A stretch of 63,353 nucleotides of DNA, counting the filler, from Hausera hauseri (taxonomy: Eukaryota), in NCBI GenBank assembly GCA_046269625.1. It is 10 parts of 10 records of this genome, joined end to end, with 100 filler letters (N's around TTAATTAATTAA, not from the genome) between each part and the next. Parts side by side here need not be neighbours in the genome. Positions count along the whole stretch, not along the records: positions 1 to 7,504 come from JBJURY010010677.1; 9 more parts are not named here. One strand, 5' to 3'. Shown here one piece after another: positions 1 through 54,800 of the stretch (position 1 is the stretch's first letter; every line of letters starts with the position of its first letter). Both the position numbers and the translations under genes were made by a program. Below the pieces are notes generated by a model that had not been told where the DNA came from, ran no database searches, and saw nothing but the letters and a program-made list of their open reading frames with translations.

Positions 1-80
1 TACTGTCTTAAACAAAGAACAAAAGAAAAAAAACTAGAAAAGAACTCAACTATATCCATTTAAAGTCATCTTTTGAATTT

Positions 81-1648
81 GAGGCACTTGAAACACTTCG
101 TGACGTTAGCCAGAATTATCCCGTTTGAGCACATTATTGTCGGAAATTCCTGTTAGTCAGGAATTTATAAATAAACTTACAGTTGATCAGGCGGTTCTCG
201 AACAAACTAATGGTTTGCAAGGTGATCAAATTGCATCGATTATGAACGTTCGTCATTCTGAAAGTGATTCAAATACTGGTAATCAATTTCTGTTGGACGT
301 TAGAAATGCTCCAGCTGTGATGTGAATAACCTTGAGAAGGATAGTCGCAATTATTCATGGCCTAAATCAGTTCATGATTTACTTACACCTACATATCCTG
401 GAGTTATGAAAAGAATAGCTAAAAACTTTTTCAGTGCCATTTTAGTTCTGGATCCATCACTTATTGAGAGCAGGGAATATGTTAAGTTTGTTGAGGCTTT
501 CGTCATACACAATGCACCAATTAGAATGATTTTTTTATGGGCAGTAGATCCCAATGAAAAGTTGGAAAACGCTCCTGGCAGAGCTTTTATCAGATCCTTA
601 GATCCCTTAGCTGCTCTTAGTTTCATTACAGATTTCTACGCATTGATTGATGATGGTGAGCCGATTACCGTGCCTTTGGTTAAAGATTATCTGAAGGAAA
701 AGTATTCAGATGTGGACTTTGATGTTACGTTTCGGGAGAAATTGGACTATGATGACAATATTAAGGCGTCGTGGAAATTACCAAAACCATTAGTTTTACT
801 AAATGGCTTGCTCATAGATTCAAAATCTCTAAATGAAATGGGATTCGAAGAAACCGTTGTGAATAACGTTCTCCTGACAACTATGGTACTGCAGAAACTT
901 GTGACCAGTGGACAGTTGACCGATGGACTCCCGGTCTTAAACTTTTTGATGTCAGCTGACAATGTTGTAACCCGACTTAATAATAAAATTTTGAAAAATA
1001 AAAGTGCTCGTTTCGTCAGCTTTGTCAAGTCGTTCGACCAAGCTTCAAATGTCACTAATGACTATTTATCCAGTTTGAGTAGCGACGAAATCTCAACGAA
1101 TATTGCTGATACCTTGCTGTATTTTGTTAAAGACGACGATTTTTCTAGCAAAAAACATGTTACTATATGGATTATTGTTGACATGGAAAATTCTGTTGAT
1201 CAGAGCATGTTTTTCGAATCTTTAAGATTGATGCAATCTTCATACAATACACGGCTGGATCTGATATTCAATCCATCTTCAGCAAATCGTCATAGCCTTT
1301 TAAATCCTGCTATGTATAATATTATAAAAATTACTCACAGAGTTGTCTAGAAAGTTGTTTATCGATTTGTTAACTGATACTTCTTCAACGGCTTTGAAAG
1401 AAAAACTGATCAATTATTTGAAAAAGAAGGAATATGTTAAGACTAAACTGGGTGATCTACTAGATGTACCTAAAAATTACTTATCTAGAGACGAACCTTT
1501 TGTAAAAAGTGTTTTAAAATGCAAGCTTGGTGAAGCAGTTGTGATAGCCAATGGAAAAATGTTTGTTCCATTTGATCAGAATGAAACTCTTGTAAAGGAT
1601 GATTCTAAACCAATTGAAAGAGGCTGTAGTAATGGAAAAAAGTGTTGA
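81..1648 (+). pseudogene. UGGT: UDP-glucose:glycoprotein glucosyltransferase fragment (thioredoxin-like domain region), intronless and frameshifted
   Basis: Successive frames give EALETLRDVSQNYP, LDVRNAPAVM/NNLEKDSRNYSWPKSVHDLLTPTYPGVMKRIAKN, FLMSADNVVTRLNNKIL, VTIWIIVDM...SSYNTRLDLIFNP and VLKCKLGEAVVIANGKMFVPF, collinear with animal UGGT. Frameshifts near 123, 322 and 1345. Confidence 0.85.
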
Positions 1649-2140
1649 AAAGGTTAAAGAAGGTCCTTGGTAGTGGGATTGTTAAAGCTAGAAAGCTGTC
1701 TGATTTAATGAATAAAATCGCATCACTGGACAAGGCCTTGGACATCTGAACAAATTTGGAAATTAGCTGTCGAATGGGAAACCAATTGAGATGTTTGGAA
1801 AGCTGGGAGATTTGTTGAACTTCACGTGCTGAGGAAAAAGTACCACAGCAACCTCACTGATCGACCGACGGACATTCAACCATCAGAGGCATCTAAACAC
1901 AGATGGGTGAGATTTCTTTCATTGATTCGCACCCACCAGTGTGATCGCTTTCTAGGCATTTGCGGACCCTTCCTGACTCAAACAATTTTTCATTTTAAAG
2001 GGTTTCTAAACTTAAAATCTTTGTATATTTCTTCATCCCAATCTTCATTTGCCACCACTATCCCGGCTGTACGCTCGAACCACTTCTTAATCCAAAAGGT
2101 AACCGCCCAAGCCCTCCGTGCATTTCAGTGTTCCCTTGGG

Positions 2141-2383
2141 ATGACCTCATCACAATTATTTTTCCTGGTCTTTAGCTACAACTAACACATTACAACTTTA
2201 CAAGCTCCACTCAACGATACAGCACCGTTCTTATATAACGCTTTGTCCTCATCATATAGCATCTCTGATTTTTATTTCACATATCAAGGGCTTATGGTAC
2301 ATCCTTCATACTCCCTCTTGTCTTTCGTATGCCACTAACGTCCAGACACCTGTCTCATGCTCCATTTTCGCTTACGGGGTGGA
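2141..2383 (+). pseudogene. Ubiquitin-like domain ending in LRGG, in frame with and N-terminal to Gag
   Basis: One frame from ATG 2141: MTSSQLFFLVFSYN*HITTLQAPLNDTAPFLYNALSSSYSISDFYFTYQGLMVHPSYSLLSFVCH*RPDTCLMLHFRLRGG (81 codons, 2 TAA stops). Confidence 0.6.
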
Positions 2384-3351
2384 TCGGACCCCGATCCTTC
2401 TTATGTGGAAAACTCCACAAAGACCAGATCTGGTCGTAGTCCTGCCGACCCCACACCAACTACATCTCCAAATCTTCCTTGCACAGATTTTTCTCTTGAT
2501 AAATCAAATTTGAGCCGCATTTGGTTACAGTTCCATTTGCAATGGCTTAAAGCCAATCTTATCACAGACTCCTTTTTGCGGGCGAACAGTTTGCTGTTAT
2601 TACTTCCAGCTAACATCTAGCAGCAAATCAACAATCTTGCTGACATACTTTTTCAACTCCATATGATATGCTTTATGAATCAGTTCTGCACATCACCGAC
2701 CCTTTCATTGGCAGTATAATTCAAAAATACTTCAATGAGCATGCCAGCGGAAATCAAAAACCGTCGGATTTCCTTAAAACTGCAATGTCGCAATTGAGTT
2801 CCTTAGGCGTCACTTCTATAAACAATGCCGATCTTCTTCGTCGATATTTTCTTTCATTTTTACCAACCTCCATCAGGGCGCTACTCACTGTAGTAGATGA
2901 CTCTACTACACTTGAAAAGCTGGCCTTATTGACAGACAAAAGCTTTGACATTTTGCAGTCTATTAGTCCACAACCAGTAGCTAAAGCAACCGCTCACACA
3001 CCTTCACACACCGACAACACTCCATTTTCACAACAATTGAAATTGATGCAGCAACAGTTTGACGAGTTAAATCAGTCGATTCTAGCCATTACTACCCAAC
3101 TAAATAATCTTAATAGGCCTCGACGAAGCGAAACCAGACCTCTAAGGGAGAGAAGCACTTTCAGGCACTCTGCTCGATCCATTTCACCTGGTGGACGCAT
3201 TACTTGTTTTTATCACACGCGATTTCAAAGGGATGCTAGAAAGTGTTTTTTGGCTTGTCGTTTCTACAGCAAACGGTACGCTGTAGACAACCTCATTTGT
3301 ATCTATCACAATAAGTTTCAGTCACGGGCTAGATCATGTGTGCCTGTTTGA
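2384..3351 (+). pseudogene. gag: Gypsy Gag (capsid-like, with C-terminal CxYHxxFxxxARxC motifs)
   Basis: LPCTDF...IWLQF...LITD...LLLLPANI, then KPSDFL, LLRRYFLSFLPTSIRALL, TLEKLALLTDK, and twin CFYHTRFQRDARKC / CIYHNKFQSRARSC motifs. Confidence 0.75.
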
Positions 3352-4199
3352 AAATATTATATCCATAAGTCTCCTCGCTTTTCATCCTCCTATTCCTTTT
3401 CTCCAAAACCTTCAAAAAAGTAAAAGCGCCACCAGATTTTACGGCACATTCTGGTGCAGGCAATATCGCTCAATCTTCTGGCCGTTTCAACACCGCCTCT
3501 GCAGTCTTTCTGTTCAGAGATGCACTGTTATGCAGTGATACTTCACATATCGACTTTCTTATAGATTCAGGAGCTGCCTTTTCACTCCTTCCGTTGTCCT
3601 TCGTTCCTACATCGACTATGATTTCCTGTCCACCGTTTTTCATTGCCAGTATTCAACTGTTGCATGTTGCAGGACCACGGAATTGACTTTCACATTCGCA
3701 AACTTGCCAAATAAGTTTGTATGGAAGTTCCACGTGGCTAAAATTAAATCTCCCATAATAGGCTCAGGTTTTCTCTGCACAAGATTATTTAATCGATTGC
3801 AAATACAGCTATCTTTTAAGCAGGAACTCAATTGCGACTCCAAACATGTGTCTCGTAGACAACTTAGCGAGCAATTCACTGCACTCATCTATGAACCTGT
3901 TAAACGCTTCGTCATCTATAAAATCTTCAGATAAAGTCGGCAATATTTCAATTATGAGCGACAATCATAAATCCATTCTAAAACAAAAATCTAAATTAGG
4001 CGTCGACAGTAGTGATGCCAGTTGCTTTTCGTCAATCACTGGAGCTGTTCTCTCTAATGACATGCCTTATTCATTTTTATTTCTAGACTCCGATCTTAGA
4101 TCATACGTCATAACGTTTTGCTTTCGCAGAGTTTAAAGGGACGTCAACGTCAAGCCTCCATCCACAACTTATCATCACATAGTAACAGAGAATCAGAGG

Positions 4200-4984
4200 C
4201 CGATCAAACAAAAGGTCAGACCCTTGTCGCCACGAAGACGTAAATCTATGGAACAGGAGTTTAATGGATTGGAAAGGTTTGGCATCATTCGGAGATAGAA
4301 TTCGCCGTGGGCTTCTCCTCTTCATGTAGTGGTAAAGAAAGATGGTACCTATAGGCTATGTGGCGACTATCGTCAATTAAACAACCTAACCATTACCGAC
4401 GCCTATCCATTACCACTCATTAAAGATATTCTTCATAGCCTCAACAACACCAATACCTATTCTACCATTCATCTGCACAAAGCCTACCATCAAATTCCTG
4501 TTGCCCCTGATGACATTCCAAAAACTGCTGTCATCACACCATTTGGTCTTTATGAATACATCTTCATGCCTTTCGGCCTTCGTAGCGCATCTCAGACCTT
4601 TCAACGCCACATCGACACCGTTCTTTCTGGTCTTGATTTTGCTCATCCATACATAGATGACATATAGTCGCTTCTAGATCCATCAAACAACATCGTGAGC
4701 ACTTTAGGATCATTTTCCACAGATTGCATCAAAACAACGTGCGAGTTAATTTCGCCAAATGCAATTTCTTCCAAAAACATGTCAACTTCTTAGGCCACAT
4801 AATTACTCCTGAAGGGTATTCGCCCCAGCCTGATTGCTTACAACAATTAAAAAATGTGACGTTGCCAACTACTACTACCGATATGAGTTTTTTTGGGACA
4901 TTGCATTTTGTACACAAATACGTGTCTCACTGTTCCGAACTGAAGGCACTTTTCGCACATCTCTCATCTGGAAAGAAAAGATAA
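4200..4984 (+). pseudogene. pol: Gypsy reverse transcriptase (disrupted)
   Basis: SPWASPLHVVVKKDGTYRLCGDYRQLN, KTAVITPFGLYEYIFMPFGLRSASQTFQR, YIDDI, KCNFFQKHVNFLGHII. Confidence 0.95.
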
Positions 4985-5059
4985 TTAATCCATTGGACTT
5001 CCGATCTAGTAAACCAATTTGATCGCCTTCGTGAAGATCTGAAAACTGTTGAAATCTTA

Positions 5060-5476
5060 GCCTTTCCAAAACCAAACGCCGAACTAATATTGACTACCGA
5101 TGCCTCTACCAAAGTAACTGGTACGATATTACACCAAATATACAATTACGTCGATGAACCATTAGAATTCTATTCCCGAAAGCTTACGCAACCTGAAAGT
5201 CGATACTCAGCATTTGATCGTGAACTCTTGGCTGTAGTTCTAGCGGTAAATCATTTCAAGCACTTTCTTCTTTTACGTCAATTTACCATCCAAACCGACC
5301 ATAAGCCTCTACTTCACATAATGACTTTGAAACAGCCCTCACCCAGGCAAGAACGACAGATATCATATGTGTCGATGTTTAGTTTTTCCATGAAATATAT
5401 TTCAGGCACCGAAAATTTAATAGCGGATTTTCTTTCGCAGTTGGTTAACTCAATTACATATTCTGCAAGCTTTTAA
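5060..5476 (+). pseudogene. pol: Gypsy RNase H
   Basis: TTDAS, FYSRKLTQPESRYSAFDRELLAV, TDHKPL, GTENLIADFLS. Confidence 0.95.
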
Positions 5477-5619
5477 ATCTGTTGAAATCATCGAAGGCAT
5501 CGCTTATGACAATTCCAACTCGACGAAAAAAAAAATCATTTTTGCTCCATCGCTAAAAAACAGCTTTCAATCACTTTCATTCTCTTTATCATCCGCGTTC
5601 AAAAGTCATATTTAGTCTA

Positions 5620-6530
5620 CTGCAACGCCACGTTGTATGGCCAACTATGCGTACAGATATACAGATCTGGGTCAAAGGATGTGTTGCATGTCAACAATAC
5701 AAGGTTTATAAACACCTCAAACCACCACTCTACCACTTTCTTTGCACTTCTCGTTTTGAAACCGTGCATTTGTATCTTATGGGTCCTCTACCTGCCGATA
5801 ATAGTTATCAATATATCCTATCCATGATGGATCGCGCTTCTCGCTGGCCGGAAGCCGTTCTGCTTCGATCAACCAACACTGACTCAGTGGCTGATGAATT
5901 TATCAAGATATGGGTCAGCCGTTTTGGTTCACAACGTCACATCATAACGGACCAGGGTCTGCAATTTGAAGCTAATGTTCTCAAATCTCTTGTAAAACAC
6001 TTGGGTATAGCCCATCTCCGTACGACGCCGTACCATCCCGAAGCAAATGGTCTTCTCGAGAGATTTCATCGTACCATGAAGATTTTCTTAAAAATCCTGG
6101 CTAACAACAATCATAACTGGGCCTCAATTCTTCCTCTAGTCCTACTCGGTTGGCGCAACAATCCATCCACCACTACAGGCTGTGCTCCAGCTGAGGCTGT
6201 CTTTGGGACACCACTTCGTGCACTATTTGAGCTCTCCAATCTCGACGAAAGTCCATCAGATAAAGTTATTCGTGCGGCACAGTCCCACTTTGCTGATGTA
6301 AACTCGAATGCCTTCTGCCGTCTTATAAACAAAGACAAATCTTATTTCCCAGAGGACATATACTCAGCCAAGTTTGTATGGCTGAAGGATTCGTCACCTT
6401 CAGGTTTTCGGTTTCAGTACGTTGGACCTTACAAATTACTCAATCTTTCTTCGCACACTGCCACTATTTTACGCAAGGACCAACCCCATAATGTACACAT
6501 TTCTAATCTTAAGCCAGCCTTCTTCGATGA
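5620..6530 (+). pseudogene. pol: Gypsy integrase (within ORF 5647-6909, which ends in a Ser/Pro-rich tail)
   Basis: WVKGCVACQ zinc site, DRASRWPEA, IITDQGLQFE, TTPYHPEANGLLERFHR, GPY motif. Confidence 0.95.
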
Positions 6531-7073
6531 TGATGACCAGCATAACGGCATTGTTTCAAATCCCAACTTTAACTTCTATACCCTCAAGCCATCATTTAAT
6601 TTCCTTGATGATTTTAATCCTTTGCAGCCATCAATATCGCGTCACGATCAGTTCTCTTCACTTCCATCATCATACAGTGCTCCTTCACCACTTGCTTCTC
6701 CGTCATTGCCTGCACATCCACTATTCATTTCATCTTCATCGCACGATTTTCTGTTATTTTCAGTATCGTCTTCTTTGCGTGATCCATTTCCGTTTTCAGC
6801 GGATCATTTTCCGTCTTCTCCACTTTCACCTCTTTATAAAGCATCTTCCAGCACCAAAAAAATCCACAGTATCTCTCTCTCTCTCAAACGACTCCACAAG
6901 TACCAGTAAGATCTAACAGATCACGTCATGCGACGTTTAGTACTTACAGCAGGAGGAAGTTCATAGATGGAGTCCAACGTCTAACACGTACCAAAATCGA
7001 ATAGGTACAAGTTCTTCTTTTTCCTACTATAATCTCCACTTATTTCTTCTCTTCACAGTCTTTATCTCGCCAC

Positions 7074-7090
7074 GGGGGGTGATGTAGTGC
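7074..7090 (+). promoter_or_regulatory. Polypurine tract and probable start of 3' LTR
   Basis: GGGGGGTGA directly followed by TGTAGTG (TG LTR start at 7083), downstream of integrase. Confidence 0.65.
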
Positions 7091-7504
7091 TTAGAGTGTG
7101 GTCGCACGGGAGGGATTAGCATGTCAATGGGAGGACCTTCCCAACCATCTAACTACACGATACAAAAATTTGTCATTTTTGACACAGGTGTGCCAACAGT
7201 ATTTGTTCGAACACCTTGCAAAAGTTACTGTTGATACGTTTAACAATGTGCGAACAATTATTTGGAATGAAATGGCAATTACCAATGCATAGAAACATGG
7301 ACGTTTCTTTTATTTGGAATGAAATGACAATTACCAATGCAAAGATCTTAAAGCTGTAGCACGTATATGGATGATCGTTAAAGGAAATGATACTATGTAC
7401 ATTTGTGTAATTCTATTTTGTCTATAACTCTCTCTGTATATACATTTATTTGTAAATATGTATTGATAAAAAAATTTTTGAATTGATTGATTTTTTACAA
7501 ATCT

Positions 7505-7604
7505 NNNNNNNNNNNNNNNNNNNNNNNNNNNNNNNNNNNNNNNNNNNNTTAATTAATTAANNNNNNNNNNNNNNNNNNNNNNNNNNNNNNNNNNNNNNNN
7601 NNNN
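7505..7604. other. Artificial contig linker
   Basis: 44 N + TTAATTAATTAA (stops in all six frames) + 44 N. Confidence 0.99.
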
Positions 7605-14403: not shown

Positions 14404-14503
14404 NNNNNNNNNNNNNNNNNNNNNNNNNNNNNNNNNNNNNNNNNNNNTTAATTAATTAANNNNNNNNNNNNNNNNNNNNNNNNNNNNNNNNNNNNNNNNN
14501 NNN
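14404..14503. other. Artificial contig linker
   Basis: N44-TTAATTAATTAA-N44. Confidence 0.99.
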
Positions 14504-14719
14504 ATTGAGGAAGTTTTTCCCTCGCGTTGGCGTAAATTATAACGCTTGTTTGACCGTATTTCTGTCTTGACAACTCTGTACTGACACAACTTCTTCCTTT
14601 CCATTTTTGATAATGTACACTGTGATTGGAGTGACTTTGGTAACTTCGTGTGGTCCTCTGACTATGCGAGTTCATTTTAATGAGGTGCCTTTCTTGGCTA
14701 CTGGGTAATGTACATAGAC

Positions 14720-15680
14720 CAAATTTCATTGTTCTATATCATGCGGTTTTGCCTTCTTATCGTATTGTTTTCTAAATTGCTCCTGATAATCTTTTGATAA
14801 TTTTTTGGAGATTTTCCAACACCTTCTCAATCGGTTTGTAACACGTCTGCGAAATTTTTTTCTAAATCTTCGAGGTTAACCGTATATGGCGTCATTCCTA
14901 AGTCCGCGAGTAACACGGCTTCCCGTCCAGACATCATACAGAATGGGGTGAATCCTGTCGCTAAGTGTGGCGCAGTATTAATTGCGAATTGGGTTCCTTC
15001 TAAAACTTCGTCCCAATCCTTTTGGTCCTTTGCTACTACTGTTAGTAATAGGCGTATGACAGTGGCATTCATTCGCTTGACCATTCTGTTGCACTGAGGA
15101 TGATACGCGGTAGTTGTTAGTCGTTCAATTTTGAATATCTTAATGATTTTCTCGAATAGTTCTCTGGTGAAATTTCTTTCTCGATCTGTGAGTATCTGAT
15201 CTTGGGGCCCATATCGGCAAGTAATCCTTCTTACTACGGCTTCTACTAAAATTTCTGCCTTTTGATCAATTAATGATATCAACTCGACGAAATGAGTTAG
15301 TCAATCAATACACGTTAAAATATATTTATTGTTCTTGTGAGTCGTAGGAAGAGGTCCTAAGATATCCATCGATATGGCTTGCATAGGCCTGTCGGTACAT
15401 GAATTGGTTTTAGTTCGTCCATATAATTTTTCGTCTTCTTTTGTTTAGTTGCACATACTTTGCAAGCATTTACCCAATTTTTCACATCAATATAGATACT
15501 AGGCCAGAAATATTTATTTATTATTCTTTCTAATGTTTTCTTCTAGAACATGTGTCCTGCCAAATATGAATCGTGTTCTGACATTAGTACTTCAGTTCGT
15601 AAACCTTTTGGAATAACTACAAGTTTCTTTCCTTTCCGTTCGTAATATAAAATATCTTCATTGCTCTTGTCATTTAAGAC
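14720..15680 (-). pseudogene. pol: Gypsy integrase (HHCC and DDE core)
   Basis: LAGH...YFWPSIYIDVKNWVNACKVC; ILTDRERNF; TTAYHPQCNRMVKRMN; FAINTAPH. Confidence 0.93.
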
Positions 15681-16325
15681 TCAATATTTATGTCCGTGTC
15701 TGTGTAAATGTTTCTTTAACTGTCGTCCTTTTGGTATGACATCTTTCTTAGCAAATTCTATAATCTGCTGGATGATCTTATCCTTTCTTTGTTTTGTTGA
15801 AATTTTAATGGCCTTATCTATCGTTAAAGCGCGTTGGCGGTCTATTATTTCCTCAAGTTGACTCTTCCTTATTACAGTGATTGCGCTTGTTTTCGTCTTT
15901 AATCTCGATATTGCATCTGCGTCTACATGTTTGTTTCCCGGCTTATATTGGAATTCAATATTATATCTCGATATCTCTTCGATCCATCTATTGAGTCTAC
16001 ATGTCGGATTATTTACTCGGCCCTTCAAGGTCGTAACGGCCTTGTGATCAGTGACGATTATGATTTTCTGCCAGTATACATAAACGTTGGAGTGGCGAAG
16101 AGCCTCTTTTACAGCTGGAGTTTCCAATTCGGTAACAGAATAGTTTTTCTCGGCCTTCTTCAAGGAACGTCCTCCATAAGCAATCGGGTGCTCTAATTCT
16201 TCATCTTCCTTTTTCTGTGCTAGTTCATAACCAATGCCTTCTTTACGGGCGTCTGTCTTGATTATAAAAGGTAAGTTAAAATCTGGATACCGTAAAACCG
16301 GTTCGCTTGTTAATATCTTTTTCAT
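15681..16325 (-). pseudogene. pol: Gypsy RNase H
   Basis: PVLRYPDFNLPFIIKTDA, AEKNYSVTELE, VTDHKA, HVDADAISR. Confidence 0.95.
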
Positions 16326-16345
16326 CTTATCAAAAGCTTTCTGTT

Positions 16346-17146
16346 CTACGTCCGTCTATTTCCATTTAATTCATTTTTTAAGTAGACGATATAAAGTGCG
16401 TTTATCTTCGAATTATCCGGCACATAGGTTGCGTAGTAACCGTATAACCATAGCCAGTGCCTTAATTCTTTTTGGTTTTGTGGTTCCATGCAATCTGATA
16501 TTTTATTTAATAACGATTTATCTGGTCTCGATGCTCCTTCTCCAACTATATGGCCAAGGTAGGACACAGCATTTTGAGCCCACTTGCATTACTTTGGATT
16601 TAATTTCAATCCAGCTTGTTCCAATCTCATCAGTGTGTGTTTGATATCCTTTAAGTGTTCCTCTTCGTTTTTTGACGCTGTCATTACGTCGTCCAAGTAC
16701 GCAAAAGCGTGATCCAGTAACATTAACATTTTATTCATCATCCTCGTAAATATGGCTGGTCCAGTAGTAATGCCAAACGGAATGACATTAAATTTATAAA
16801 CGCCATCGTGTGTTTTAAATGCTGTTTTATAGCGATCTTCGTCCTCAATCTCCACTTGCCAATATCCGGATTGTAAGTTCAGAGTGGTAAATCATTTTGC
16901 TCCTGAGAGTCGGTCTAAAGCTTTTTTTACTGACGGTAATGGGAAAGAATCTTTCATCATAAGATTATTTAGGGCTCTGTAATCGATACAAAATCGATGT
17001 TTTGTAGTACCTTTCTTTTTAACCATGAGGATTGGTGAATACCAAGATCTATAGCTGGGCCTAATTATATCGGCCTTAAGCATTCGTTCAACTTCCTTTG
17101 TTATCTCGGACCTTAGAGAATGTGGCGGAGGGTACCATTTTGGCAT
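16346..17146 (-). pseudogene. pol: Gypsy reverse transcriptase
   Basis: RFCIDYRALN, KTAFKTHDGVYKFNVIPFG, AYLDDV, SYLGHIV. Confidence 0.96.
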
Positions 17147-17539
17147 CTTCTGATCTTCAAGATCTATTTCCTCATTTGAACTCGGCTTTTTCTTGAATGG
17201 AATGGTTAGTTTTAACGCTTTCGCTCTACCGATATCTTTTTAGTCCTTAGCGATGATAGATTTATAACGGCACAACCATTCATAAAATCGACAATATGAT
17301 TCGGGGAAAAACTTAGTTTCGACATGCGGTGGAAATTCGGCGTACTTGTACGGTTTCTCTTTGATAGTTATCGACGATACTCTATACGTGTCTCCTAAAG
17401 TCGTATAAGCATGAAGTTTAACGGAAGTCTGCGCATTATCAGCTATTCTGATCGGCACTTGACCGGAGTGTACTCTTGTTAATACATTGCTGAGTAATAC
17501 ATTGTGGTCTAACGTATCTCTTGGTTCAAAATATACTGG

Positions 17540-18118
17540 TTAATTGTCATCTTGCTGTATCTGGGCATAAATTATTATTTCTGTTTTATGTGGAATATTT
17601 TCGTCAACTGGTATCCACACTTCTCCAAATTTTCTATCTTTGGCGTTTTTCACGCCTTTATTTGGTCTGATTTCGATTAACTTCCCTGTTTGTAAGTCAA
17701 TTTCTATATTTGGTAGTCTTTTCAGTAAATCACATCCTAAAACTACGTCGTCGGTTAATTGCTCTATAACTGCAAACTCGTGATGGAAAAACTGTCCAAC
17801 TATTTGAACTTCTGGGTTCCATTTAAACATTGGTTTTGGCATTTGACAAAAAGCTCCTGTACTTCCTGGATCTTTCGTAAACGGTGGGTACAATTGTCCT
17901 CTCAGGGTTTGAGGTATTAAATCATTTTTGATGTAAGACATCTCGGATCCTGTATCGATTAAGACGTAAACTTCCCAATCTTCGATAGTGATTTTGGCGG
18001 AAGGTCTTCCTTCTATCACTGTCCCGAAACAGGTCGATGTATCCTTTAAGCTTTTCAGCGCCGATATTTTATGTCCATTGATTCGGATTTCGGGTGACGA
18101 TACTATATTTTCCGACAA
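17540..18118 (-). pseudogene. pol: Retropepsin aspartic protease and linker
   Basis: VLIDTGSEMSYI catalytic motif; DDVVLGCDLL. Confidence 0.9.
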
Positions 18119-18699
18119 TTAACTTAGTTTTTCGTTTGGATATAATTCGTTGTTTTCTACGTGGAATTCTTCCGTTTCATGTGTACTAATTAACGGTTCT
18201 CTATTGTTAGTATATAATTTTAGTATTCTGGAAGGCTTTTAGTCGTTGGTTGTCCCAAACTGTTGATCTAGTTTCGATATTCTTAGGTTCTCTCGGTGAG
18301 TACAGCATTTTGAGGTCATCTGTGGATTGTCGGTAGCACATTTTCCGTAGAATTCCGTAACGTTTTGTTCCCTCATAAGGATCTTCTACATTAATTGTTC
18401 TTTTATATATTTCCGTCTGGTATGAGCTCATTGATCGTTTGTCACAATCCTCACAGAATGGAGCGGTAGGAGGTAACATGGGTAATAACACTTTAATGAT
18501 AGAGTATGTCTTGTATCGTCTTGTTCTTGAAAGTGCTTCTCCTCCATTAGGCTCGTAATCATCTGAATTATTTCTTCGCGTAATGGGTTTTGTAAATTTT
18601 TGCTTCCGTAGGTATATAGGCCTTCCTTTTCGTTTACGATTATGATAGCCGACATGGCGTTCTACGTCCGATTTCCACCTATTGTCTTCGTATGCTTTC

Positions 18700-20520
18700 A
18701 AGAATTTTCCAAAAGGCGTTATGATCGCAGTTAAGATTTTGCAAGAGACTCCGGTCAACGTAAATATTTCATACCCATTTATCACGGCTTAAATAACTGC
18801 GTTGATCATTTGTATCAGAAAATATATAGCTAAGAATCCGGATGCGGCTTGTCCAAATATCAAAAATCTTCCCCAAATTTCTGTGGTTACTGGCTGATAA
18901 TGATTTACGCCAAGTAAAGATTCCCATTTCGCCTAATATCGTGTATCATCTACTATAGAAGCCATAGCTCGATTTAACTCGTGTGTTCGTTGTCGTGGAA
19001 AGGCAAGGAATTGTCTAAAAGCCTCCATTTCCTTCGGCTTGTATATATCTTTTGATGAGGTGTCTTGAAATTTATCGTCTGTAATTCCTTTCGCAAGATT
19101 TGTTCCTGTCAATTTATTTAGAGCGGCAATAATACCTCTATTTGGCAAGCTGACCCAATCTGTTTCATTACGTCTAAACATAGGTTTTCCTAAGCTTGCC
19201 TTACAATTTTTAAGGATGGTCGGTTGGGTAGCGTTATTCAATAACCCTCTCGTCAGCGATGTAGCTAATCTCGGATTATTTTGGTAAATAACAGGAAGTT
19301 CCTGAATGCAACGTTTTCCTTCCACGTTGATGGGCACATCTCTCTTTTCACATTCATAAGTTAGCAATACTTCGCCTGTTACCCGACCGAAAATTCCTTC
19401 TCTCATAGGAATTATTGGTGAAGCCAACTCTGGTTTGGCGTATATGAGAGCCAATTATGTTCTCATAATTTTGGTATCTAATTTGCAGTCATTCATTATC
19501 ATTTTGTAATATAATTCCGTTATTCCGACTTGTCCTTTGTAGTAAAAGTAATCATTTCTATTCTTCAGGTAATCTTCGATGCGGACATCCTGTGTTTCTA
19601 GCTTATAAGTTTTCGCACTTATCGCCATCTCTGCGACGAAAAACGCCACATAGTTCGTAGCAAACATCACTACATCATAGCGGAAAATCATCTCTTTTTT
19701 AATAATTGTTAATCCATGCTGATCCGAGATTAATATAGTAGGTGTATAGTGTTCTGATACATCCTCACGTGTCTTCGAATTGGTTTCTGATTTGTCCACA
19801 TATCTCTTTCCTGTAGTCTCATTGAACTTTAGTTCTTTAATTTTAATAAAATTACAATTTCTTCCAGAGGAGGTTCCCATATTATAACGGAGTTCCTAAA
19901 AGCACAGGTTCCGTCTTGTAAATGACATTTTTGATTTTCTGTATATAGTTTGGTGACACTATGGAACATTACTTTCTGTGATCACATTTCCGATTCGTTA
20001 AAATCCACAACCACCACGTTTGATTCTAATCCTTTTCCGGTATCATATTCTGCTCCATTACAGTGTCCGCTATGCATATCTAATCTTCCGGCTACCACTT
20101 TGTATGTCCTGATTGTTTTTCCCGGTTGCATCTACAATTGCATACTGTCCCATTGTATTCTTCCCGTTTCTTTGGCTTGCTTGTAGCGTTGGCGTTCTAA
20201 ATTCATCGAAATTAGTGGAGTTGTTGGCTTGATTATAGAGGAATGTCCGTGTACTAATCCACAGTGAAAAATGTTTCGTGATCGTCTCAGCATGCATTCC
20301 ATCCCATCCAACGATATCTGTTTTTGTTGTTGGTATAAGAAGTAGTTTTTCTCCTTTGTCTCCAACTTGTGTTTTCTGGCATCTTCGCATGCTTCCAAAT
20401 CCATTAGGGAATATCTCTATCCTAATTTAAACTTATCGCAGTCGTAGATGGTTACAGCGCCTATGTGCTTTATTAGCATCATCAAGGTGAGTAAGCTAAT
20501 TAGCCAATTCGGTTCTATTT
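18700..20520 (-). pseudogene. env: Chuvirus-like (class III, gB-type) envelope glycoprotein with internal signal peptide and C-terminal TM segments
   Basis: NWLISLLTLMMLIKHIGA|VTIYDC..YSLMDLEAC..ECMLRRSRNIFHCGLVHGH; ELYYKMIMNDCKLD..GEVLLTYECEKRDV..CIQELPVIY; IYKPKEMEAFRQFLAFP; WGRFLIFGQAASGFLAIYFLIQ..INGYEIFTLTGVSCKILTAI. The motif series matches recalled chuviral G. Confidence 0.85.
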
Positions 20521-22641
20521 TCCGGCATCCAACGTCCGCCGCTGTCAAATTACGTAACATATCGTCGAATTTATTATTGTTTCGTTTGTCTTCTTCCTTG
20601 TCAAATAGTCTTGACCAATTTACTTCGCAGGGCAATCTTTTTGCTGCTTTTTGTGCTAAGCTTATAGCTCTATTGATTTCATTCTCTCGATTAGGATTTA
20701 TTTTGATGACTAAGTATAGTAGTATTTTCTTAATTCATCATTGGTGTTCTCTATCATATTCTTTTCGATTACCGATTTGTCGGTTAAGTTGCTTTTTGAT
20801 AGTTTAAAACGTGAACTTCTCATCATTTTGGCCGCATCAAAAATTATCTTTTCTTTATCGTCTAATACATCACCTCGAAGGCTTGAATAATTTACAATTC
20901 GTATCAGATTCTTCATTAGCTCGTTTATTTCTTCATTATCTGTGCTAAAGTTGGAATTGACATTTGTCTCAATTCTCTAATCAATTCTTCGTTGTAGTCT
21001 ACTTCTTCTCGCGTTTTCTTGCGCCTACCGATTTGACGTTTCGGCCTTGGCCCTTTGGTGGTCATTTCGCTCAATGGTACTAAATTTATATCATATTGTT
21101 CCTTATCTTCATCCGTTTGTAAATACTCGAAATACATTGCAGCATCTCGGACTCCCATAATTTGTCCTACGCATTGTTCCTCTTTAGCCTTACGTGTGGC
21201 TTCTTTTTTTGTCTGTTTGTTAGCTATTATTGCTGCTATCCGGTTTGTTTCGTCGGCGATAATCCCGACATCTATTAGCTGTTCTAGGTCGTCAAGTATT
21301 CTACCTCTAAAGTAAAATCTGTAATTTAGATCATTTGTTCCACCATTGTTTAACAACCATTCTTTTACATTTTTACATAGAAATATGTAGTCAACTCACA
21401 TTCTTTTTTATCCATCTACTCGGATGATATTATTACTTTCATCGCTACCTCAGGTTTAGTCCTTAAAATTTTGACGTATTTCGTTATCAACAGTTTCGGC
21501 ACCGTGCTATAAATTGTGTTCTCATTAGACAATTTAGTTAAAGTTGGAATAAGTCGTCTTAATTTATTTTCAGTAATATTTACATAAATTAGTTCGATTA
21601 AATCTTTTTCAGTTAGCGCTGAATCCAGGAGCATCTCCACATTGAACCTCCTGTTCTACGGGCACGTTTCTATTTCATTTAATTGCACTGGGGTAATAGG
21701 TTTCTCAGCACGTATCGCATCGAAGTATGCATCCCATTCGGGTTCGTTTTCAGCATCTGGAAGTCCGTAATCCACTAAGACAGTATTTATTCTTTGCACA
21801 TTTTCTCGAATTTGTTTCAGTCTGGGCTGTATTTCTTTCATCTGCGTAGTACGGAAACCTACTCCGTTTCCACAGGCATACTGAATCATTTTTAGTAATT
21901 CGTCTAATTTATTAGGGTCGATCAGTCCCTTCTGATGATAATCTGTCAATTCAAGAATCACATCCTTTTGCCATCTTTGTACAAATTCTCGCTTATTTTT
22001 GATTTCTGATTCTGTAAAAGCATATTTATTTCTGTAGACTTCGAACTCCTTTGTTAGTTCATCTAGACTCGTTGCTCTTTGTTTTGTTTTGATGCACGTT
22101 TCTTCAACTTGCTGTAATTTTGGCATCAGTTGTCTCATCCTCTCGTCATTAATTTCCGCCATTTCTACCAATAGGTAGGCTAACCCATACATGTCATTTA
22201 TAATTTTTGAGTCGTGATCTATCGCGCCTGACAATTTCTTTACAAAATTAGATTCCTGAAAACTAATATGCTGATCATTTCTTATTTTTATCAATTCGGT
22301 ATGAAAGTTCTGATTTGATACAGCCATCTATTCTTGGTGTTTATGTAAAAATTTTATCGTGTCCGTTAAGGTGGCTCGGTGTTCCGGACAAATGTCCAGG
22401 TTTTCGATATCTTGGACAGAGATCTCATCGATCGGTTTATCTGTCAAATATTGAACTTCTTCTAATCGGACATTTTTCAATCGCGGATAAAAATTGCAAG
22501 TCATATTTCGCTTTTCGGTAAATTTTGTCTCTTTGATCATTTCATAGATCTCTTCCAGTATCGTCGCTTCTTGTTTCTTTTTCATAAAATTAAGTCGTCA
22601 TAATGCCTCAAATCGCGTGCGGATGTCTATCGCTGCTAGTA
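20520..22641 (-). pseudogene. Accessory polyprotein region of unknown function (SAM-like, helical and ubiquitin-like segments)
   Basis: Homologous to 47790-48905 (+) and 56918-57963 (-); EISVQDIENLDICPEHRATLTDTIKFL; YRFYFRGRILDDLEQLIDVGI. Confidence 0.7.
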
Positions 22642-30080: not shown

Positions 30081-32223
30081 CTCAGTGTTTTCCCCCCGAT
30101 TTGTGGCTGTAAGGCTCTTGCTAGTTATTTGGAAAGCAGGGAGGATTACCAAAATTACTGTATTACCTCTAAATATTATTTTTCTGCCCCTAAAACTAAC
30201 ATTAAACATGCACTTTAACATAAAACACTTTGTAGAACGGTGCTTTATGAAGTTCAGTCCATTTATTCTATCAGTTGACCGGCAGTTCTGCCTCATCCAA
30301 TATGGCGGCCGCTCCGACGTACCGCTGCAGCGGGTCAGCCCACTCAACGAGGTGTCCACTAAAACTGCCTCACCAGTTCTCTGTGATCACCCTGGCAGAT
30401 GACAATAGCCAATCAGTGATGGAGAAAGGTCAGAGGAGCTTTGCTATGAAATAATGATGAATGATTGTTTGAAATGTGTTTAATAGGTTAACTCAAAAAC
30501 CGCCGATCTGACTCCAAATCTGCCCAAATTATCTCCTCCCGGCCAAAGCTATTTTTACCCGCAAAATAGAGAATGAAAACCGCCCAATCTGGCAACACTG
30601 TTTGAGCAGCTACTGGCGTAACATGACACAAAAATCGACTTTTCTTTCTTTGCCCGGTGTCTTTCGGTAATTATTGAGCAGTAACGAACCGATTACTTAA
30701 CTGATTACTGATTTTTTTCACAGACTATGCATTTTATTAAAGCATTTTTTTTTCCATTTTCACTGATATTTATATGGTGCATAAAAAGGAAGCAAAGCAT
30801 TTGGTTAATCAAGAACAAGATTGAAATAACCATACGTAATGGGAAAATTAATAAAATAATGTATAGATCCGTAGAGAAATAAAAATAGATAATACTCAAC
30901 TTGTACAGAAAAAAAACTTGTCTGGTTTCACTTTCTCTTTCTGTGAGTACAAAGGTCCTTTTTTCCTAAGTCAAAACAGAAAGTATTCACACCTCAAAGG
31001 TCAATTATTGTAGGAATAATTATTAGTTATGTACTGTACAGATGTATCTTCTTGAGATACCAGCCCACAATTTGGAACTTTTGAAAGTGGCTTTAATACA
31101 CAGTATAATGACTCCTTGCACACTGTCAAAGCTGCTACAACAAAAGCTGAAGATACCATGGTCAAGTTATGACTCCAATCCAAATTAAAATTTCTGGTAG
31201 TACTTTGAAAAAAGAACCTGAGAGTGAAGATGTCCCACATTTATTCTGGCTGAAATAATTGTACCAGCAAAGATGCTGTTGGAATATTAACCCAAATGTC
31301 TCATCCACATATGGGTTAGCAAAAATTTGTTTTTCATTCTTGTACTTGTCTCACTTGCAAAACAAGTTAAAATCATATAAACTATCACAGAATAACTTCA
31401 TAACCTTTGCTGTAAATCCTTACACCTTATACCCTCTTGAGATATGGTATTTATCTGTTTGTACTTTATGCTTCATTCTATGAAGTGTTCAGGCTTGCTG
31501 CGTTTTTAAAGTCTCCATCTGTCATCCTCACCTCTACACATTTTGATTAATAATGAGTACATCATACAAAATCAGAATTAAGAACATTATGTTATGATTA
31601 AAACATTCCTAACAATCACTTATATTTTTGTTGCTGTGAGTAATAATTAGACCTCATCAGCTTCATTTTGTGTAAAGTGAGTCACTGTGTGCTAAAGGTG
31701 AAGAGAAGCTGCAAAACAGGAGCTTCTTTAGTCACTATGAGACACCATATTAAATCACAAATCTGTCAGATCAATGTAATTTTATTGTTTCATTAACTGG
31801 CGATGTAAATCTGCAACAGATGATATTTAAACCATAGCTGGGGTTTCAGCATACCTGCTGACTGCTCAGCCTCTCCCAGCTTAGTTATTATCAAAGTACG
31901 ATCATAGTTAATAGTATAAAAATAACATATTATTTTATGGTTATATTTTATTACATGAAATACAGTTTTTAGTTTTAGCGTCTTGAAAAGAATCATTTAT
32001 AGAATGAATAGGAAGTTTCGTGTTTGCGGGATTTCCCCGCATTCCTTTCCTTGCAGACTGTCTGGAGACGCATGAACGTCATGACCAATGAGAAGCTCTA
32101 GAATTTATTTTGAGGGGATTTCCCTTTCTACTTTGAAAATCGTAGTAGTTTTGAAAGCAGTCTGAAAGTAATGTGTGCTAATTCCCGTAGCTATTCCAGT
32201 TTGTACTTTATCGTACAAATTCA

Positions 32224-33906
32224 ATGATGAATCGAGCTTTATCAAAAGAAGAAATTTATGATATGTTACTGTCTTCTTCCGATGATGAAGAAATTGTTTC
32301 GGAATTAGAAGATCACATTTCTGAAGCTTCGGAATTATCTTCGGCTGACGATGAAACTGAAAATGAATTTACAGACTGCACATATTTATCAAAGGATAAG
32401 TTGATTCAGTACAGAAGTGACCCTGTTACGCAAACAGGTAAACGGACATCAAAAGATATTTTAAACCTTACACCAGGACCTACTAGATACGCTACTTCAA
32501 GAATTCATGACGAACTATCTGCTTTTCGAATGTTTATTACAGAAGACATTGAGAAAATTGTTATCATGAACTCAAACATCGAAGGAGCACGTGTTTTTGG
32601 GGATAAGTGGAAAGTAATTGACAGTGTTGAATTTAGTGCCTATATAGGTTTGCTGTTACTTGCTGGTGTATTCAAATCCTGCAATGAATGTACAGAAAGT
32701 TTGTGGGATGCAGAGAAAGGCAGACCTATTTTCAGGGCAACTATGAGTTTGCAAAGATTCTTTCATATATCAAGAGTTTTGAGATTTGATGATCGAGAAA
32801 AGCGTTCCTGTAGGAGACAAAAGGATAAGTTTGCAGCCATTCGCGACTTATGGGATATGTGGGTGGAGATATTGCCAAAACTTTTTAACCCCAGTGCATA
32901 TGTGACAGTTGATGAACAGTTGGTTTCATTCAGAGGAAACTGTCCATTCCGGCAATACATGCCTAAGAAACCCACAAAATATGGAATAAAATTTTGGATT
33001 CTGTGTGACTATGAAACCAGTTATGTGTGGAACATTCAACCTTATCTTGGAAAGCCAATAAACCAGCCACGTGAAAAAGATCAGGGACTTAGGGTTGTTC
33101 TTGATTTGTCTTATGGTCTGAAAGGACATAATATAACGTGTGACAACTTTTTTTCTTCATATAAACTTGGTCAGATGCTACTCAAAAGAAATTTAACTAT
33201 GGTTGGAACTATGCGAAGAAACAAACCTTCTATTCCCCCTATATTGTTACAAACTAAAAACAAGGAAGTTTATGCATCAATATTTGCTTTCACGAATGAC
33301 ACTATGCTTGTCTCATACATACCAAAAAGAAATAAATGTATTATTGTTCAAAGCACATTACACTCTGAAAAAAAAGTTGATACATCAGAATCTAAAAAAC
33401 CTCAAGCTATCCTTGATTATAATTCTACGAAAGGTGCTGTAGACACCTTAGATAAAATGATTTCATGCTACACCTGTAGAAGGAAAACTAAAAGGTGGCC
33501 AGTCGTTGTATTTTGAAATGGTCTTGATATTTCAGCGGTGAATGCGTACATACTGTTCTTGGCAGCAAATCCTGATTGGAAAGTAAAATCAAAGCGAAGA
33601 CGACAACTTTTTATTGAATCTTTAGGCATGGGATTAGTACAAGACCATATTTGTAGAAGAGACATTCTCCCACGACAAGAAGCTGCAGCTGAATTAGTGA
33701 AAAATGTGCAGTGTCAATCGGAAGACGATGCAAATTCTATTCCCGAAACAGCGGGCTCAGCAAGCACAAGACGAAAAAGAGGTCGCTGTTATCTTTGTAA
33801 ATCAGACAATAAATTTCAAAATGTATGCATAAAGTGTGGTAAATTTGTATGTAAGACACACTTCAATCAAGTGTGTACAAAATGCACCACTGCAAGTGCT
33901 CAGTGA
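32224..33906 (+). pseudogene. piggyBac (PGBD4-like) DDD transposase with one in-frame TGA at 33514-33516
   Basis: VTVDEQLVSFRGNCPFRQYMPKKPTKYGIK, ITCDNFFSS, YNSTKGAVDTLD, RWPVVVF*NGLDISAVNAYIL, C-terminal Cys-rich RGRCYLC..CIKCGKFVCKTH..CTKC. Confidence 0.95.
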
Positions 33907-45033: not shown

Positions 45034-46080
45034 ATGGCAGCAGATAACGCATCAATAGCGCAGAAATTGGACATCTTCACTTTCGATTCTCTAAACTAGC
45101 CGGCATACGACGGTGACCCGGACGGGCTTAAGAAATTCTTAAGAACTTATAAATTGCACGCAGAAAATGCTAGTCTTACTCCTGAAGTGATGATTTAGCG
45201 ATTGTTGTTGTATTTAAAAAATTTAGCCTCTGATGCCTACAGTGAACTCACTAATGACGATAAGAAATCTTGGTCCTCCCTGGTAGGAGCGTTAAATCGC
45301 AAATTAATGACGACAGTAGAGCAGCAACAAAAGCTTATGGCATTTCAGAACACAGTACAGCAAAAGGGTGAATCGGTAACTCAGTTCACATTTACGTTGA
45401 AGAAGCTTGCTAATAGTTATATTAGTACATTGAGGATAGCCAATGTAGCTAAAGCTAAGACAGATGCGGAATGTGACGCAGCGGAGAAGACCTCACCATC
45501 AGATTTAGATGTTATGATGACGACGCAACTAATAAATGGTATTTGGTCACGAGACTTGGTTAAACAATTGATTTTGGCTAGATCTGAGAATTTTAAAGGA
45601 ACGTTACAATTAGCTCAAGACTAAGAAATTGCGCTAGATAGATACTCCAGACATAACGATAGAAACGACAGGAATAATGATCGCGATGACCGGAATGATA
45701 GAAATCGCAATGAAAATCGTGGAAGAGATGACAGGCGATTTACGGGTAACAAAAATTATGGGAATAGAAGTAATAATGGCGGTTACAGAAGTGGCCGAGG
45801 TAGTAATTATACTAATACGAACAGATCAGATTCTACTGGAATAGGAATAGAGGAAATTATAAAGTCTCAAACTACTCGAATCAAAACGACGATAACCGAA
45901 ATAACGATAATCGACCAAATGCCGATAATGCGCAAAGTTTGTCAAACCAGTATAATAAAAGTATAAATAGATCTAAGTCACCAGTAAACGAAGACGGTCG
46001 GCAAAGAGTCGGCAGAAATGGGAATTTGGTTTGTTTTAACTGCGGTAAAGAAGGACATATTTCAAGGTCATGTCCAAATC
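45034..46080 (+). pseudogene. gag: Gag (capsid, Asn/Arg/Asp-rich linker, CCHC nucleocapsid)
   Basis: PAYDGDP..LKKFL, LLYLKNLASDAY, QQKGESVTQF..LKKLA (MHR-like), CFNCGKEGHISRSC. Confidence 0.9.
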
Positions 46081-46355
46081 CGCGTAGCGTTTCATTTACT
46101 GAACCAAATAAGACTAGTATGATTAGAATCAATGAAAATTTAGAAGCAAAGTATGGTATTCGTGGAGATACAGGCACTATAATTGATATACAGGACTTGA
46201 GAAAATTCTTAGATGCTCAGCCGGATACCACTAACTTACCAATTTTTATGGCTAGAAGAGAATACGGAGATAATTTGAGATTACTAGAAGTGTATCATGG
46301 TTTAGTAGAACCAGAAACTGAATATTAACACGCACTAGCACCCAAACGAATTGAT

Positions 46356-48269: not shown

Positions 48270-49682
48270 AACAATTGATGCCCAAGATACAGAAAGTAGA
48301 AGAAACATGTATCAAAACAAAACAAAGAGCGACAAGGTTAGATGAAATAACAAAAGAGCTTGAAGTCTATCGAAACAAATATTCTTTTGCCCAATCAGAG
48401 ATGGCAAAAAGATGTAATCATCGAACTAACAGATTTTCACCAAAGGGACTCATCGACTCTAACGAATTCGGTGAATTACTAAAAATGATTCAAAATGCCT
48501 GTGGAAATTGAGTGGGTATTCGGACTACGCAAATGAAAGAAATACAACCCAGGTTCTAAGAAATTCGGGAAAATGTGCAAAGAACGAGTGTAGCCTTTGT
48601 AAGCGCTGGACTCCCAGATGTCGGTAATGAGCCAGAATGGGATGCATACTTCGACGCAATGCTGACCGAAAAGCCCATGACTCTAATACAATTGAATGAG
48701 ATAGAAACGTGCCCGCTGAACAGAAGATTCGCTGGGGAGGTGCTACTGGATTCAGCGCTAACTGAAAAGGATTTGATTGAATTAATTAACGTAAATATTA
48801 CTGAGGATAAATTAAGACAACTTATTCCAACTTTAACTAAATTGTCCAATGAGAACACGATTTATATCACGGTGCCAAAGCTTTTTATTAGAAAATATGC
48901 TAAAATTGTTTCTAATGTTGTCACGAATAAAAAAGTTTAGCTGCGAGATGTGGCTGTTAAATAACCGACCCTACTCTCCTCCTAACCTCTTGTTGTATGG
49001 AGCTGACCTTGATTATCCGTTCAGCCATCTTTGTATCTAGTTCTTCTTCTTGTCTGATCACCATGCCACCGAGTGTGCAGCTCTCTGGATGGGCTCTGAA
49101 AAGGGGCTGTCGTTATAGTCGTAAAAAGGACTGCGGAGGGTGTGGCTCTGCTTTTCTGTCATCCTGGTAGTGTCTAGGAGATGGACCCAAGGTCCTACAG
49201 GTGGTAGTAGCAAGTGATCCACTGCACAATTGGGGACAATATAGAGGTTCCACCCATCAGCTGTTAGGTTTCCCTTTCACTACCCAGGAGACACGACAAG
49301 GATGTGGGCGAAAGTCTTGGCAGACTACAAGTCATCAATCCTGGCACTGTGTAACAAGGCCAGCTACGAATCGCCTAGAGCCTCCTGAAACCAGTATTAA
49401 ACTAGTTCATTGAATATTGTGTCACCAAGCAGTATTCACATGAGGATTCACGCATATACATATTTTTGAGAGAAACAAACATGGATGTGCTACTGAGACA
49501 ATAGAACTGAAAGAAGTTTCTAACGAATTTTTGACTCGATATATACAGGAAATTAATGCCTACCTCCACCAAATCATCACTGGTGATGAGTGATAGGTAT
49601 ACCATTACAACTCAAACAACATTTGTCTTTGGGGTGCTTATGTAAGGACTTACCTACCCTAAAAAAAAATTAAAATTAAATA

Positions 49683-52502: not shown

Positions 52503-52505
52503 GAC

Positions 52506-53900: not shown

Positions 53901-54311
53901 GAGATCGATCTCGTCGTTAAAACCAGACTTTTTCTTAAGTGGTATAGTTAATTTTAACGTCTCTTCTCGGCCTATTTCCTCTTCGTCCTTTGCAATGATT
54001 GATTTATATCGACATAATAATTCGTAAAACTGGCAATAAGCTTCTGGTGAAAACTTCGTATCGACGTGGTGGAAATTCAGCGTATTTATACGGTTTCTCT
54101 TCAACCGTTATTTCTGATACTTTATAAGTATGTTCTAGAGTAGTGTTAGCATATAACGTCACTGGAGTCTGAGCATTGTTCACTATTCTTACAGGTATTC
54201 GACCGGATGCTACCCGGGTTAATATGTTGCTCAATATTATATTCGGGTTTAACGTTTCTCTTGGTTCAAAGTATACTGGTATATCGTCGTCTTGACAGAT
54301 TTGTGCAAATA

Positions 54312-54800
54312 TTAACAATTCCGTTTTAGACGGAATGTTTTCGTCGACCGGAATGCATACTTCTCCGGATTCTCTTTATTAATTTTAGTTCCCTTTATTG
54401 GTCCGAGTTCGATTAACTTTGAAGTATTCAAGTCTATCGCGACGTTTGGTAGTCGTCTTAATACATCACATCCTAATACTACGTCGTCTGTTAAGTGCTC
54501 CATTATAGAAAATTCATGTTGGAATGTCTGTCCCATTATTTTGAGGTTAGGGTTCCATTTGAATTTTGGTTTTGATTCTTGTCCGAAAGCTCCTATACTT
54601 CCGGGATCGGTTGCAAGTGGTGGTCGTAATTGACTTCGCAACGTTTTCGGTATCGATCCGTTCGTTATAAATTATCTCTCTGATCCGTTATCTACTAGTG
54701 CGTAAACTTCCCAATCTTCAATACTAATTTTGGCAAAAGGTCTACCTTTTATCTTAGGTTGTTTAGTGACGGATATCTTGTAACCATTTATACTAATTTC
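54312..54800 (-). pseudogene. pol: Retropepsin protease (degenerate)
   Basis: ALVDNGSE (DTG variant), DDVVLGCDVL. Confidence 0.85.

Follow-up and report, generated by a model that had tools for sequence, protein, structure and literature searches.

In the genome of Hausera hauseri (GCA_046269625.1) a gypsy-type retrotransposon carries, directly ahead of its Gag, a reading frame that looks like a ubiquitin-like domain ending in Gly-Gly. The question raised by this locus is whether the domain is real and belongs to the element, and what it does for Gag. The element lies near the beginning of the window, that is, of the whole stretch of 63,353 nucleotides that was analysed.

Reading frame of the leader

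The earlier note described an 81-codon domain that starts at position 2141, is read through two TAA stops, ends in LRGG and runs in frame into Gag. Translation with X at the stops confirms this. The leader occupies positions 2141-2383 of the plus strand and comprises 81 codons, of which the last encode LHFRLRGG, so that the end is RLRGG with the Gly-Gly codons at 2378-2383. The frame is interrupted by TAA at 2183-2185 and 2336-2338. Cleavage would fall directly after Gly-Gly, where the next residues are Ser-Asp, and the frame continues through an unconserved, Pro/Ser/Thr-rich linker of 32 residues (2384-2479, pairwise z at most 1.6) into the N-terminal region of Gag as far as TAG at 2618-2620. 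The window DNA is unbroken between the leader and Gag, and RLxGG occurs a single time in the 126,702 six-frame residues of the window.

One public sequencing run contains the element; the run may come from the source organism and is therefore not independent. It has 10,891 contigs on 1-7500 and 383 on 2090-2420. The first leader stop codon has another letter in 449.5 of 525.7 depth (21 contigs) and the second in 1424 of 1757.6 (43 contigs). Because another letter stands at both stop codons in most of the depth of the run, both stops are decay private to the window copy. Among the 383 contigs no indel is listed in the leader at 10% or above, and at the same threshold no difference is listed at 2373-2383, the last Arg-Gly-Gly codons. 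Contig depth in the run is at its maximum at 2366-2389.

Organization of the element

Judged by its sequence, the element is a dead CsRn1-like Ty3/gypsy copy, the term "CsRn1-like" resting on the finger motif and the gag/pol overlap. All features given here are on the plus strand. Gag (2480-3423) has a DUF7041-related N-terminal domain and is broken by a stop at 2618, by a frameshift near 2645-2655, from about which it resumes in another frame (ORF 2644-3351), and by a stop at 3349. It contains two tandem CX2HX9CX3C (CHCC) fingers at 3205-3351, of which one is intact and the second ends at the premature stop; the relatives have two. The start of the pol frame (3369-3686) overlaps the end of gag in the -1 frame, with an A-rich run at 3414-3420, and a -1 frameshift would presumably join the two frames there. 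This region has no Pfam protease match; it includes LIDSGA near 3552, which we take to be a protease-like motif. Reverse transcriptase and RNase H follow in pieces at 4299-5476 (Pfam RVT_1, RT_RNaseH and RT_RNaseH_2), and an integrase ORF at 5557-6909 (Pfam Integrase_H2C2 and rve). The domain order is PR-RT-RH-IN, with RT, RH and IN identified through Pfam and the protease through its motif only. A G-rich run resembling a polypurine tract, with TG at 7083, and a putative 3' LTR of approximate end take up 7074-7300.

The copy appears to be 5'-truncated. A 5' LTR sought in 1-2200 was not found (score 29-30 against a shuffle maximum of 37). A search for tRNA genes found none. Apart from the leader, five gag and pol ORFs were scanned with Pfam, and no deubiquitinase domain was detected in them.

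Relationship to ubiquitin

The window leader alone matches no Pfam family at E up to 1, and its comparison with the PDB returns no ubiquitin and four unrelated matches (E 0.012-0.28), so that the assignment needed the family. The leader is identical to ubiquitin at 20 of 76 positions, has Thr at 44 and Leu at 48, and is not a canonical ubiquitin. A profile of 28 leaders, with the window and a near-ubiquitin relative (P0034) left out, matches ubiquitin residues 2-76 in the PDB (E about 5e-11) and also ISG15 (E 1e-13), and the hhalign probability for the leader family against ubiquitin is 97.7%. On a profile from which its closest relatives were removed the window leader scores 34.0 bits, which is reached by none of 500 tail-keeping shuffles (maximum 19.9); without the tail it scores 22.3 bits, again with 0 of 500 shuffles. 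When all six frames of the window are scanned with the leader profile, the leader scores 21.9 bits and the next match -0.2. With E limited to 0.01, the Pfam ubiquitin family is found in 9 of 31 relatives, 2 of them above the cut-off.

The predicted fold agrees with the profile. An AlphaFold2 model of the leader of one relative, P0005, based on the 28-row alignment and with the window leader itself left unfolded, has a pLDDT of 82.7 and a formed last strand. Foldseek finds ISG15, SUMO and ubiquitin for this model at probability 1.0; matches at E up to 0.001 number 12, and all of those shown are ISG15 or SUMO, with TM 0.64-0.73. The best VIA match is SUMO1 (Z 9.3, rmsd 3.2, 74 aligned), and the top ranks are SUMO, PB1 and other beta-grasp domains, at a Z of 8-9 that is barely above the usual background. 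A model from three sequences (pLDDT 63.7, last strand unformed) gave nothing in Foldseek at E up to 0.001 and a best Z of 3.8 in VIA, with no ubiquitin-like row. The ESM Atlas scores for the leader of P0002 are all under 0.9, with ubiquitin clusters at ranks 4 and 8, and serve as a lead only. The ubiquitin-like domain proposed in the earlier note is thus upheld by the family profile and by a relative's fold, and the leader is, on profile and model, a diverged ubiquitin-like beta-grasp domain.

The origin of the domain was examined with 64 distinct SDE2 N-terminal domains (120 loci) and 95 distinct viral ubiquitins (121 loci). Early signals pointed to SDE2: PDB entry 8ro1_X at E 0.02, Pfam Sde2_N_Ubi_yeast at E 5.6e-4, which is below the cut-off, and an hhalign probability of 94%. 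The profile of the four closest leaders also favours SDE2 (maximum 17.5 bits against 6.4 for ubiquitin). An SDE2 origin is not upheld by the deeper 28-leader profile, which favours ubiquitin (median 44 bits against 9 for SDE2), the hhalign probabilities being equal. In P0034, residues 177-252 amount to a near-canonical ubiquitin (Pfam 81.5 bits); it is joined to Gag, lacks an initiator Met, and has 57 of its 76 residues identical to a viral ubiquitin. P0034 lies inside a clade of support 100, whose other five leaders are identical to ubiquitin at 17-23 of 76 positions; for the 10 leaders measured, P0034 excepted, the figure is about 17-25 of 76. The simplest reading of these sequences would be that the leader descends from ubiquitin and has drifted, and that ubiquitin was captured anew at a later time in P0034, a protein that rests on one contig and could be a chimeric model.

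A lineage of double-finger Gags

A search with the Gag ORF among proteins of 413-2000 residues gave three matches with identities of 64, 47 and 50%. All three have the leader ahead of Gag, with the ends RLRGG, RLLGG and RLCGG. When 1.84 billion representatives were searched by HMM, 2929 matches resulted, of which the best 150 are listed; the query profile contained the leader, and the ranking therefore favours it. Two CHCC fingers are present in 40 proteins among these best 150 of 2929. Wherever such a double-finger Gag has at least 50 upstream residues, GG stands 5-50 residues before Gag (29 of 29). The other 11 are unscorable; eight of them start inside Gag, and P0025, P0028 and P0038 have a Met start 19-24 residues before Gag and may lack the leader. 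Single-finger Gags number 102 in the best 150 of 2929; 20 have at least 50 upstream residues, and GG is found in 5 of these, or in 4 of 19 when the truncated P0004 is set aside. P0004 is also the only one of the 102 with a leader match. The leader is present in 3 of the 4 finger-less proteins with long N-termini among the best 150, and of the 117 listed proteins that do not belong to the leader set none scores above 4.4 bits with the leader profile. The rows behind these leader counts are related and not phylogenetically independent. That relatives would keep leader and Gag in one protein, as the earlier note required, is borne out by all three Gag-ORF matches and by the double-finger Gags among the best 150 of 2929.

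A quick Gag tree was made from 69 rows, comprising 34 leader-bearing proteins, 5 short calls and 30 single-finger Gags drawn at random. One branch (SH-aLRT 95) holds 40 rows, namely all 34 leader-bearing proteins, the 5 short calls and 1 single-finger Gag. In the six pairs formed by the window and its three relatives, the leaders have pairwise z of 3.8-17.1 against shuffles and the flanks at most 1.6. Between close families the Gag core is 60-80% identical, whereas the leaders are 23-42% identical. The available sequences indicate that the GG leader marks a lineage of double-CHCC-finger Gags. A scan of metagenome loci with the Gag alignment yielded 594 pattern matches and 0 confirmed cases, and a word-based search with the leader profile returned only its 3 seeds.

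Conservation of the tail and the surface

The set of 35 leaders consists of 29 unselected ones, the window, P0002 and 4 added by hand; P0005, a near copy, was excluded. All 35 end in GG. Position -5 is R in 23 and K in 5 and deviates (Q, S, T, P or I) in 7, and position -4 is L in 29 and I in 4. The residue after GG is S in 14, A in 4, T in 4, M, G and N in 3 each, and D, Q, K and V in 1 each. Pro directly after GG occurs in 0 of 35, against 40 Pro among 385 linker residues (p about 0.02), and the second residue after GG is Asp in 17 of 35. The SDE2 signature, GGKGG with the SDE2 C-terminal domain behind it, is absent: Lys follows GG in one leader of 35, and Gag comes next. Mean column identity in the 28-row leader alignment is 24%, with GG as its sole invariant part.

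Leader positions were mapped to ubiquitin numbering through P0034. The buried positions 26, 30, 43, 50, 67 and 69 stay hydrophobic. At the position of Ile44, 26 of 34 leaders have T, S or C, and at that of Val70, 22 of 34 have N, H or S; E1 and the majority of ubiquitin readers use these two residues. Ten of 34 leaders keep Lys48, 27 of 34 have R or K at Arg72, and 6 of 35 are without any Lys. A kept core and tail with a lost Ile44 patch points, as far as residue patterns can tell, to a cleavable tag and not to a signal that ubiquitin receptors recognise.

Start of the precursor

The earlier note took ATG 2141 as the start, and across the lineage this part of its description lacks support. The leader frame stays open for 117 codons upstream (1790-2140, plus strand), which contain no ATG, while the other two frames have 9 and 5 stops there; 7 of 5000 shuffles of this upstream stretch stay open, in a single post hoc test. 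A Met lies 70-90 residues before the GG end in only 5 of 35 leaders. The lineage-wide start is probably elsewhere than at ATG 2141, and 1790-2140 may encode an N-terminal extension of the precursor. The extension is unconserved: its last 42 residues give pairwise z of at most 1.5, and the sequence is unlike that of the relatives.

The relatives are gene predictions without DNA context, several of them fused upstream to unrelated host-like sequence, and their starts are therefore unreliable. Comparison of P0010 with its cluster-mate P0158 shows that P0010 was called from a Met inside the leader domain, and short gene calls can thus be artefacts. In P0025, P0028 and P0038 the Met lies about where the residue after GG lies in their sisters (P0028 beside P0132). 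Their beginnings are either gene-caller starts or the result of leader loss through a gained AUG.

Further upstream, at 304-1648 of the plus strand, long reading frames with Thioredoxin_14 and Thioredoxin_15 domains, split by a frameshift, abut the gypsy element; they are presumably of UGGT type. Contigs of run X1, of depth 70-86, match part of this stretch with 24- and 27-base insertions, and the stretch looks multi-copy. Across 1-1750 the contigs add up to a depth of 20-86, and within the element to between 400 and more than 14,000, contig depth being distinct from copy number in this comparison. Upstream capture of host cDNA as a routine trait (UGGT here, and pieces of methyltransferase, Rrp44, CNOT1 and histone genes in gene models) was considered and is unsupported for the window copy.

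Probable processing of the leader

A host deubiquitinase, as the earlier note proposed, probably cuts after GG and would thereby give Gag and Gag-Pol a defined N-terminus. In the pathway that we infer, which covers the cleavage, the enzyme, the frameshift and the purpose alike, translation would begin with the leader or upstream of it, and the position would differ between families. The folded leader would present R-L-x-G-G to a host USP-type enzyme, as in SDE2, FUBI and the ubiquitin-ribosomal fusions. Gag, and Gag-Pol by way of -1 frameshifting, would then begin after GG, mostly with Ser-Asp, whatever lay upstream, and the freed leader would be disposed of, possibly via a di-Gly C-degron. 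Human SDE2 is cut by USP5; L70, R73 and both Gly are needed, and the residues past the site are irrelevant (PMC13572447). These cleavage determinants fall at positions that are kept in the leaders. Pro after ubiquitin stops cleavage (PMC9703124), and KLHDC2 degrades the di-Gly domains of SDE2 and FAU once these are freed (PMC8013793). A broader proposal, which is tentative and on balance doubtful, is that the lineage handed Gag maturation to the host ubiquitin system: the start would be variable and often non-AUG, a particular deubiquitinase would license capsid assembly in certain cells, and fresh host ubiquitin would be re-captured after drift, as in P0034.

Other fates of the leader have to be weighed against its removal by a host deubiquitinase. 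The leader might be cut and the freed ubiquitin-like protein be what matters, as a decoy or a conjugated modifier acting against the host ubiquitin system. The cut would expose a C-terminal GG, the residue at Arg72 is mostly R or K (27 of 34), the P0034 domain shares 57 of 76 residues with viral ubiquitin, and ubiquitin-pathway domains are carried by other transposons (PMC2836005, PMC6431247). A decoy is nevertheless an unlikely role, and weaker because the Ile44/Val70 surface has been lost; further, Lys48 remains in only 10 of 34, 6 of 35 leaders have no Lys, the leaders of close families diverge to 23-42% identity while the Gag core keeps 60-80%, and the equivalent domains of SDE2 and FAU are destroyed through KLHDC2 once freed (PMC8013793). 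Retention of the domain on Gag as a folding aid or interaction domain, with GG as a relic, would have parallels, since many ubiquitin-like domains are never cut (PMC13572447) and the available text on Burro reports no cut of its internal SUMO-like domain (PMC6431247). Such retention is quite improbable when GG is the sole invariant part of an alignment of 24% mean column identity, the linker behind GG is unconserved and Pro is absent after GG.

As to the enzyme, the cut after GG could be made by the element's own aspartic protease, for which there is a protease-like motif, or by a non-USP host protease of the SENP or UCH type; the P0005 model fits SUMO and ISG15 as well as ubiquitin, and the fold therefore leaves the enzyme class unfixed. 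We regard both as very unlikely, given an R-L-x-G-G tail that is like those of ubiquitin and SDE2 and unlike that of SUMO, which is QTGG; retroviral-type proteases are not known to need a folded beta-grasp or GG. The fusion itself might be an artefact, either a chance motif or gene models that join a host ubiquitin gene to the element, and it is true that by itself the window leader matches no ubiquitin in Pfam or the PDB and that several predicted relatives are chimeric upstream of the leader. This explanation is largely refuted and has hardly any probability left: the DNA from leader to Gag is continuous, the 383 contigs of one run are without a listed indel, and the same layout is found in 35 diverged sequences that lie together on a single branch of Gag. 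Of the readings weighed here, removal by a host deubiquitinase is the preferred one.

Other elements of the window

A transposase ORF at 32191-33516 of the plus strand (DDE_Tnp_1_7, E 4e-69) is presumably of the piggyBac type. The gap of Ns at 7505-7604 has the TTAATTAATTAA linker at its centre. Two related broken LTR elements lie on the minus strand at 14500-22600 and 51300-57950. They are 68-72% alike in blocks and have the gypsy order PR-RT-RH-IN, with protease and RT matches in the first only. Both contain a Monjiviricetes-type fusion glycoprotein, PF24664 (E 5e-9 at 18933-19451 and 1e-12 at 55241-55879), which in both precedes pol instead of following it. For Burro, the placing of an env between gag and pol is termed a first case (PMC6431247). 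At 45816-48900 and 21467-22630 there are a zf-CCHC ORF and an ORF of 646 codons that has no Pfam match. The segment 47775-48907 resembles, at 76% and in inverted orientation, the 5' end of the element with the glycoprotein.

Relation to known systems

A full-text literature search, with most subscription journals, Repbase Reports and supplements outside its scope, found no Gag with a Gly-Gly ubiquitin-like leader, and the lineage is apparently undescribed. It is a known processing device in a new setting. LTR retrotransposons are considered to fix an additional protein domain only rarely (PMC9289625). If the cut is real, the lineage needs a host deubiquitinase before Gag matures, which is a point of host control; no description of such a point was found for an LTR element in the literature searched. 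The leader also explains the mis-annotation of such Gags, with internal Met starts and chimeric gene models, and the roughly 35 highly diverged natural tags, in which nothing but core and tail is kept, make up a test set for deubiquitinase requirements.

The CsRn1 clade (CsRn1, PwRn1 and AgCR) shares with the window element the CX2HX9CX3C Gag finger, the order PR-RT-RH-IN and a gag/pol overlap compatible with -1 frameshifting, whereas the window lineage has two tandem fingers and the ubiquitin-like GG leader (PMC2582038). SDE2, FUBI-eS30 and the ubiquitin-ribosomal fusions have, like the leader lineage, a ubiquitin-like domain at the N-terminus that ends in GG (PMC13572447, PMC8013793), and the hydrophobic, Arg and Leu positions of SDE2 that USP5 requires are also found in the leader (PMC13572447). 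It is likely, by analogy, that the leader works in the same way as in these fusions. It differs from SDE2 in that the cargo is a retrotransposon Gag and that the residue after GG is mostly Ser, where SDE2 has the Lys of GGKGG. In cytopathic pestiviruses a captured ubiquitin marks the viral polyprotein for processing by cellular hydrolases; their inserts are recent recombinants with real ubiquitin, whereas the Gag leader is diverged and fixed across a deep lineage (PMC5381556). The giant planarian gypsy element Burro/GYPSM1 likewise has a Ubi2/SUMO-like domain in its polyprotein, but there the domain is internal, after Gag and between MATH and BCL-2, and the text available describes no GG cleavage (PMC6431247). 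Ginger1, Mutator and Helitron elements have taken up parts of the ubiquitin pathway too; they encode a protease, Ulp1 or OTU, whereas the leader lineage encodes a substrate tag (PMC2836005).
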